Sequence record: PP274704.1
Origin: Escherichia phage ECp13
Reading direction: 5' to 3' (one strand)
DNA: 64,000 nt
Part shown: positions 40,404-40,869 of the stretch, in pieces
Position numbering within the stretch: the stretch's first letter is position 1
Layout: each line of letters starts with the position of its first letter
Notes under the pieces: generated by a model
The model's input: only the letters and a program-made list of their open reading frames with translations
What the model was told of the DNA's origin: nothing
Databases searched by the model: none
Made by a program: the position numbers and the translations under genes

Positions 40404-40804
40404 TGGAATTTAAAGACTTTTCAACGGGTCTTTATGTAGCAGCTAAGTTTTCAGAATTAACACTTGATGCGCTGGAAGAACTCCAGCGCTCTTTACGTGT
40501 TCCTAATCCAGTTCCTAGAGAAAAAATTCATTCGACCATATGTTATTCAAGAGTAAATGTTCCGTATGTTCCATCGAGTGGAAGTTTTGAAGTAGCTTCT
40601 TCTGGACATTTAGAAGTATGGAAAACGCAAGATGGATCGACTCTTGTACTTGTGTTAGATTCTGAATATCTGCGCTGTCGACACATGTATGCGCGGGCAC
40701 TAGGTGCTACACATGATTTTGATGATTACACACCGCATATAACATTGTCTTATAATGTTGGGCCTTATCATTTAGCGGTGATGTACAAATTCCGGTCGTA
40801 TTAG
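40403..40804 (+). CDS. 57B: gp57B, apparently C-terminally truncated by a frameshift
   Basis: 133-aa ORF; T4 57B is 152 aa as I recall; a +1 frame continues 40792-40857 ([21 protein letters not shown]) and would restore about 151 aa. Confidence 0.7.
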
Positions 40805-40869
40805 ATCGTGAATATAAAGAGCCTCTTAAACTCGATTGGGCAGATGATTTAAAATAATTTCACAAAGTT

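Follow-up and report, generated by a model that had tools for sequence, protein, structure and literature searches.

One missing C interrupts the anti-CBASS gene acb1 (57B) in the deposited sequence of Escherichia phage ECp13

In the deposited sequence of Escherichia phage ECp13 (PP274704.1) gene 57B ends early, while the sequence that should follow is present in another reading frame. This raises the question whether the phage has lost a functional gene or the record has lost a base. Here, a stretch of 64,000 nt (the window) was analyzed, in which 57B (acb1) is recorded on the plus strand at 40403..40804, according to the ORF reading with 133 aa and a TAG stop codon at 40802-40804. This ORF, as well as a second frame that stops at 40855-40857 and would extend the protein to about 151 aa, had already been described in a sequence-only reading of this DNA, and both were found again. 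It had been proposed that a one-nucleotide indel displaces the C-terminus of gp57B, and a true truncation, a sequencing error and a recombination scar left by the adjacent cassette were offered as causes.

The product of gene 57B is Acb1, an anti-CBASS 2H phosphoesterase (Hobbs et al., 2022, PMC9117128). ECp13 is a Tequatrovirus and the locus is the Tequatrovirus gene 57B region, with the gene order 1 (dNMP kinase), 57A, 57B and an ip5-type internal head protein. The gene occupies the same genomic position as the one encoding T4 Acb1 (ACB1_BPT4, PF23474). The recorded ORF matches the Pfam family PF23474 (Acb1) with an E-value of 3.4e-52 over profile positions 1-122 of 144, and the protein obtained after restoration of the frame matches the complete profile (positions 1-144 of 144, E=2.6e-60). 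The restored protein also matches the solved Acb1 structure 7T26 (E=4e-62), which belongs, together with 7T27, to the homologue of Erwinia phage FBB1. Since PF23474 matches the recorded ORF as well as the restored protein, the two-frame pattern is not a chance ORF pattern. On sequence level, the product is predicted to be a 2H-phosphoesterase or cyclic-nucleotide phosphodiesterase, which degrades the cyclic di- and tri-nucleotide signals of CBASS. A profile search against NCBIfam gave no match for Acb1. An AlphaFold2 model of the restored protein, calculated without alignment, displayed a mean pLDDT of 37.8; because this is unusable, the model was discarded and the published structure description was used instead. 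The identification of 57B as the gene for the anti-CBASS nuclease Acb1 gives the frameshift question a biological meaning.

T4 57B comprises 459 nt and 152 aa, in agreement with the length given in the sequence-only reading, and the closest relatives KNP5, ime09 and Ec_O157kw annotate 57B with 456 nt and 151 aa. The alignment revealed that this difference is located at the N-terminus, where the T4 annotation starts one Met earlier; the 57B start of ECp13 is likewise one Met shorter than that of T4. The end of T4 gp57B corresponds to position 40857 of the window, and not to position 40804 as would be the case for a protein of about 133 aa, an outcome that would have spoken against the proposed indel.

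For the exact localization of the lesion, 57B of the window was aligned on nucleotide level with 57B of KNP5, ime09 and Ec_O157kw. The sole length difference across the gene is one missing C. This alignment and the pairwise gap lists place it in a CC run at 40763..40764 on the plus strand, which is CCC in every relative examined. The site reads GGGCC in the window, GGGCCC in KNP5 and Ec_O157kw and GGACCC in ime09 and Sfk20; on the minus strand of 57B it reads AAGG[G]CCC, where the bracket marks the missing base. The proposed indel was thereby confirmed, although it lies about 30 nt upstream of the region 40790-40795 in which it had been suspected.

The C is missing after codon 121 (P122 in T4 numbering). 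Up to this point the recorded ORF is native, its residues 1-121 being residues 2-122 of T4 Acb1. Due to the missing C, the ORF then enters 12 wrong codons, which are followed by the TAG. The remainder of acb1, encoding the native residues L123-K152 (T4 numbering) plus TAA, is present out of frame at 40765..40857 on the plus strand, as seen from the frame reading and the alignment. Homology to Acb1 in this alternate frame begins already with the codon TTA at 40765. If the C is restored, a protein of 151 aa is obtained, which is 100% identical to residues 2-152 of T4 Acb1, and this restored allele is present on 989 contigs. The 30 out-of-frame codons show no decay whatever, and an A6 run inside 57B at 40520-40525 is left untouched.

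Sequence and alignment, together with the published description (PMC9117128), define what the frameshift keeps and what it removes. Both catalytic HxT motifs are retained, HST (T4 H44/T46) at 40529..40537 and HIT (T4 H113/T115) at 40736..40744, both on the plus strand. The HIT motif ends 19 nt upstream of the deletion, and the whole H44/T46/H113/T115 tetrad precedes the lesion. Compared with T4 Acb1, the recorded ORF lacks residues 123-152 and carries a tail of 12 unrelated residues instead. Hence, E141, W147 and the lid 145-152 are missing and are encoded only in the other frame at 40765-40857. In Acb1, E141 contacts the N6 of the adenine, W147 is involved in base stacking and residues 145-152 form the lid closing over the substrate (PMC9117128). 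Nearly every residue of the lost segment aligns with the solved FBB1 homologue, and the segment would appear to include one or more core strands as well. A second anti-CBASS gene, acb2 (vs.4), which encodes a cyclic-nucleotide sponge, is intact at 50850..51116 on the plus strand and encodes the same protein sequence as in T4.

Within the collections searched, the deleted allele is private to ECp13. A 131-nt tile over the site matched 502 phage records, and the best 60 of these 502 all span 132 nt, i.e., the deleted allele is absent from them; the 24 best records differ from the window by the gap alone. The deleted string gave 0 matches in IMG/VR, in metagenome contigs and in genome contigs. 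The intact string was found in IMG/VR, which shows that the scan of this collection works. The exact 133-aa product is WWE96770.1 (Escherichia phage ECp13) and, in a set of about 15 billion proteins, was found on one contig only; a separate lookup of contigs encoding this product returned no record. The best phage-collection matches to the window are about 98% identical over 24 kb, and a literature search on ECp13 retrieved no relevant paper.

The deletion in 57B is accompanied by similar changes. In comparison to its relatives, the window displays six private 1-nt changes including the one in 57B, all six of them deletions and none an insertion, and five of the six follow the pattern G(n)C>G(n-1)C. 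The relatives have GGGG where the window has GGG at 5267..5269 in the 24.3/hoc intergenic region (AAGGG[G]CTTCGGCCCC, hairpin AAGGGGCTTCGGCCCCTT), at 14866..14868 in a hairpin downstream of gene 18 (ATAGGG[G]CCGAAGCCCC, ATAGGGGCCGAAGCCCC) and at 21792..21794 in the wac/gene 13 intergenic hairpin (TTTGGG[G]CCTTGCGGCCCC, TTTGGGGCCTTGCGGCCCC). In the intergenic region upstream of gene 19, GG is present at 14164..14165 instead of GGG (CCTAGG[G]C, CCTAGGGC). In the nrdC.11/nrdC.10 intergenic region, T5 replaces T6 at 59572..59576 in the T-tail of a terminator (...GGGCTCCCTTTTT[T]A) after the hairpin GGGAGCCTTCGGGCTCCC.

For four of the five deletions outside 57B, tile searches with about 500-650 matching records showed that they are private, the gap being the sole difference to the best records. 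At 14164, an identity of 99% or more is reached by 427 records, and among the matches listed all span 132 nt; compared with other carriers of the same endonuclease insertion (see below), this deletion is private as well. For the deletion at 14866, the basis is that the best carriers of this insertion span 903 nt, together with an alignment to pSs-1 and ADUt. Four of the six deletions take one base of a hairpin stem and leave the complementary run at full length, at a cost of 3-5 kcal/mol. At the hairpin sites, all seven panel genomes retain the long allele, although the divergence of some reaches about 5%. At the 57B site, the run comprises only 3 bases and no strong hairpin is present.

As a control, the private 1-nt indels of seven relatives were listed over the same ~46 kb. 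These seven genomes contain 16 such events, 8 insertions and 8 deletions, and none of the 16 lies in a G/C run. The difference to the window corresponds to p=0.00023 (Fisher) for the G/C-run bias and to p=0.05 for the deletion bias. G/C runs represent 12% of the homopolymer runs of at least 3 in the window, which has a GC content of 36%; a naive binomial for the G/C-run bias over all runs yields P=0.0009, which serves as a descriptor only, and the seven-genome control is fairer since selection removes indels in coding A/T runs. Using the same criteria, 8 private indels were counted for T4T and 3 for BMB16, so that ECp13 is no outlier. Therefore, only the composition of the events is informative and not their number, and the raw count was discarded as a test for a noisy assembly. 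The spectrum of private substitutions was likewise dropped as a second error signature, because 90 of 108 are transitions, which looks natural and is uninformative.

On one short private branch, 3 of ~10 noncoding G4C sites are affected, compared with 1 of 24 noncoding A/T runs of at least 5. Of the G(n>=3)C sites, 76% are located in coding sequence, yet noncoding DNA contains five of the six deletions and a dispensable gene the remaining one; if errors were context-blind, at least four of five noncoding events would be expected with P=0.013. Stratified by run length this discrepancy becomes weaker, with 3 of 10 noncoding versus 0 of 11 coding G4C sites affected (p=0.09). No other frame-breaking indel was found in the coding genes of the 64-kb window versus the relatives compared, and in this respect the assembly is otherwise clean.

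Downstream of the lesion, the DLK-stop/promoter repeat described for the end of the ORF was confirmed as a 69-nt direct repeat, whose copies are 83% identical and cover the ..DDLK-stop and ..EDLK-stop ends. Copy 1 (40842..40910, plus strand) comprises the last acb1 codons, the stop codon, a TTTACA-17-TACTAT promoter-like site and a stem-loop, and copy 2 (41172..41240, plus strand) is located at the end of the ip5-like ORF 40930..41187. The TTTACA-17-TACTAT site is found in both copies. The stem arms differ, GATGAG/CTCATC versus TAGGGT/ACCCTA, yet they pair in both copies, and the stem-loops have z-scores of -3.4 and -2.9. A further repeat of a SD sequence plus ATG is present at 40919-40935 and 41247-41263. 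From these elements, the 69-nt repeat looks like a PeSL-like cassette boundary flanking the ip5-type ORF. PeSL cassettes have been described for T4-type phages (Arbiol, 2010, PMC2839356; Comeau, 2014, PMC4122927). Similar to these, the ECp13 repeat combines sigma70-like -35/-10 boxes, a stem-loop and SD plus ATG, and a small variable ORF (ip5) is flanked by its copies. In contrast to the published PeSL, in which the stem-loop lies upstream of the promoter, the stem-loop of ECp13 overlaps the spacer and the -10 region (PMC4122927).

The vicinity of this repeat is what would speak for a recombination scar, i.e., a deletion left behind by recombination at the PeSL-like repeat bounding the ip5 cassette, since the repeat starts at the last acb1 codons and, in T4-type phages, insertions, deletions and exchanges have been linked to PeSL elements (PMC4122927). 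However, the deletion is located about 80 nt upstream of the repeat within sequence that is otherwise identical to the relatives, and homologous exchange does not leave a single-base homopolymer loss. Furthermore, KNP5, ime09 and Ec_O157kw share the ip5 cassette as well as the repeat, yet their 57B is intact. A scar was therefore rejected as very improbable, which removes one of the three causes offered before, and the repeat has no demonstrable part in the frameshift. Full-length Acb1 could also be synthesized if ribosomes shifted into the -1 frame in a programmed manner, or if transcription slipped, at the CC run or behind it, and the second frame is indeed open and encodes the exact native C-terminus. 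Against this stands that no in-frame slippery heptamer of the type X XXY YYZ was found by reading the sequence between 40757 and 40804, and that a long A/T run for slippage of the RNA polymerase is missing. Since every relative examined encodes Acb1 in one frame, the two-frame arrangement is not conserved. For these reasons, programmed frameshifting was discarded as well, its probability being close to nil, and the perfect out-of-frame tail is explained by a change that is recent or by an error.

Two explanations thus have to be weighed against each other, and the evidence leans toward an error rather than a true truncation: the missing C is probably a consensus or base-calling error in the deposited ECp13 assembly. 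Here, the assembly would under-call G/C runs of the G(n)C type, mostly in palindromic or hairpin contexts, and the phage itself would probably encode a full-length Acb1 identical to that of T4. This explanation is favored because a motif-specific, deletion-only signature is the product of a systematic base-calling or polishing problem. The signature is common to the five other private changes, five more homopolymer deletions from which the rest of the assembly is not free, and is absent from the 16 control events (p=0.0002); we infer a technical and not a biological origin for it. Among other causes, such under-calls could plausibly have arisen from nanopore reading of DNA with glucosyl-hydroxymethyl-cytosine, and the G(n)C bias in palindromic contexts may point to effects of cytosine modification or of hairpins. 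As in the homopolymer under-calling of deposited phage assemblies, the changes in ECp13 are deletion-only, confined to homopolymers, private and located in otherwise invariant sequence. Unlike in typical under-calling, the longest A/T runs are spared and the bias is toward short G(n)C in palindromic contexts. An error class that affects about 1-2% of the G3C sites would be expected to occur at the 57B site at about that rate. On the other hand, the bias of the six deletions toward noncoding DNA or a dispensable gene (P=0.013) is what a selection filter acting on real mutations would produce, and an explanation by errors therefore needs the extra assumption that these are hairpin- or palindrome-specific. 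The 57B site, with a run of only 3 and no strong hairpin, also argues against an artefact, as do the normal number of private indels, the natural-looking substitutions, the lack of a further broken gene in the 64 kb versus the relatives compared, and the existence of real acb1 knockouts such as Bas43.

If the deletion is real, for which there is a smaller but serious chance, acb1 of ECp13 has lost its function very recently. The gene is dispensable, as T4 delta-acb1 is viable (PMC9117128; PMC12657218). Precedents are known from nature and from the laboratory: Bas43, whose Acb1 homologue is interrupted by a nonsense mutation, is able to escape Panoptes, and single-nucleotide mutations of acb1 were found in Bas35 escapers of type II Panoptes (PMC13577387; PMC12657230). 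ECp13 resembles these escapers in having a single-nucleotide lesion in acb1 within a T-even genome that is otherwise intact and in which acb2 may remain. In contrast, the lesions of Bas43 and Bas35 had been confirmed by resequencing and a phenotype had been assigned to them, whereas that of ECp13 is a G/C-run frameshift known from one assembly and shares its suspicious signature with five other private deletions. Since the last 30 residues and with them the presumed core strand(s) are lost, the 133-aa product, in which HxT/HxT is kept and E141, W147 and the lid are lost, is predicted to be inactive or unstable. With such an allele, protection against CBASS would be left to the intact Acb2 sponge, and the phage would become resistant to guard systems by which Acb1 activity is sensed, e.g., type II Panoptes. 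For T4, the mutants selected by type I Panoptes have been reported to be affected in acb2 and not in acb1 (PMC12657218). A real mutation is difficult to reconcile with an allele seen only once across the collections searched, with a tail free of secondary decay and with the damage that the accompanying private deletions cause to hairpin stems conserved in the relatives. The classic frameshift hotspots of T4 are A/T runs, and accordingly a natural frameshift would be likelier at the A6 run of the gene. A genuine deletion is less favored because a private acb1 frameshift must also land on the rare motif instead of this A6 run. That the deletion is both real and selected appears unlikely; in this case, a field isolate would have dropped Acb1 and kept Acb2, since a type II Panoptes-like guard of the host, sensing cA3 depletion, punishes Acb1 activity. 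In a bolder variant, the lid-less 133-aa product with its HxT/HxT tetrad would have an altered or residual activity rather than none.

Either surviving explanation is ordinary: the database record contains an error, or an anti-defence gene that the phage can do without has been knocked out, for which there are published cases. In case of an artefact, ECp13 should carry the annotation of a full-length Acb1, and the record probably contains more G/C-run under-calls elsewhere, roughly one per 10 kb. A further lesson in this case would be that truncations of anti-defence genes known from one phage assembly need read support before they count as natural knockouts, a caution that matters now because loss of acb1 or acb2 is used to infer Panoptes-type selection. 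In case of a real deletion, one more natural acb1 knockout is added to a phenomenon already described for Bas43; this is conceptually not new, but it would make ECp13 a useful T-even isolate that is already Acb1-minus and Acb2-plus. The analysis provides a corrected position of the lesion, the identity of acb1 together with its missing functional elements, and a warning on the G/C-run deletions of ECp13.

Apart from the lesion itself, the annotation of 57B is noisy. Many Tequatrovirus records in RefSeq label the product, which is Acb1 (PF23474), as 'RNA ligase', and in Sfk20 an apparently uninterrupted 57B in the region 25517-26045 is left unannotated. Such labels and unannotated copies could mislead surveys of the presence or absence of acb1. 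In another phage, pSs-1 (NC_025829.1), a private 1-nt deletion (CGT-CGCC) at about 4938 apparently splits nrdC.11 into two annotated CDSs, 4615-4860 and 4890-5624, and the same question of real or error arises there.

Within the window, some further regions differ from the relatives. The endonuclease insertion mentioned above has a length of ~650 nt and is located between gene 18 and gene 19 at about 14232-14885, relative to T4T and KNP5. It encodes an ORF of 205 aa on the minus strand (14231-14848) with an HNH-like C-terminus (..QLDHKVSIKYGF..NNLEIITWESNREKSKRN), whose equivalent in phage ADUt is annotated as 'homing endonuclease'. The NCBIfam search gave no match for this ORF, and 47 phage records cover at least 80% of a query spanning the insertion. 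A hairpin at about 24757-24777 reads TTCGATCC-TACT-GGATCGAA in the window versus TTCGATCC-AGTA-GGATCGAA in KNP5 and Sfk20, which looks like a flip of the loop and not like an indel. Downstream of trna.4, in the region of the tRNA cluster and small ORFs, the stretches at about 41646-42900 and 43780-44860 align only piecemeal with KNP5 and Sfk20; the identity falls to about 95% with several gaps between the HSPs, and this part of the genome seems to be mosaic and hyperplastic.
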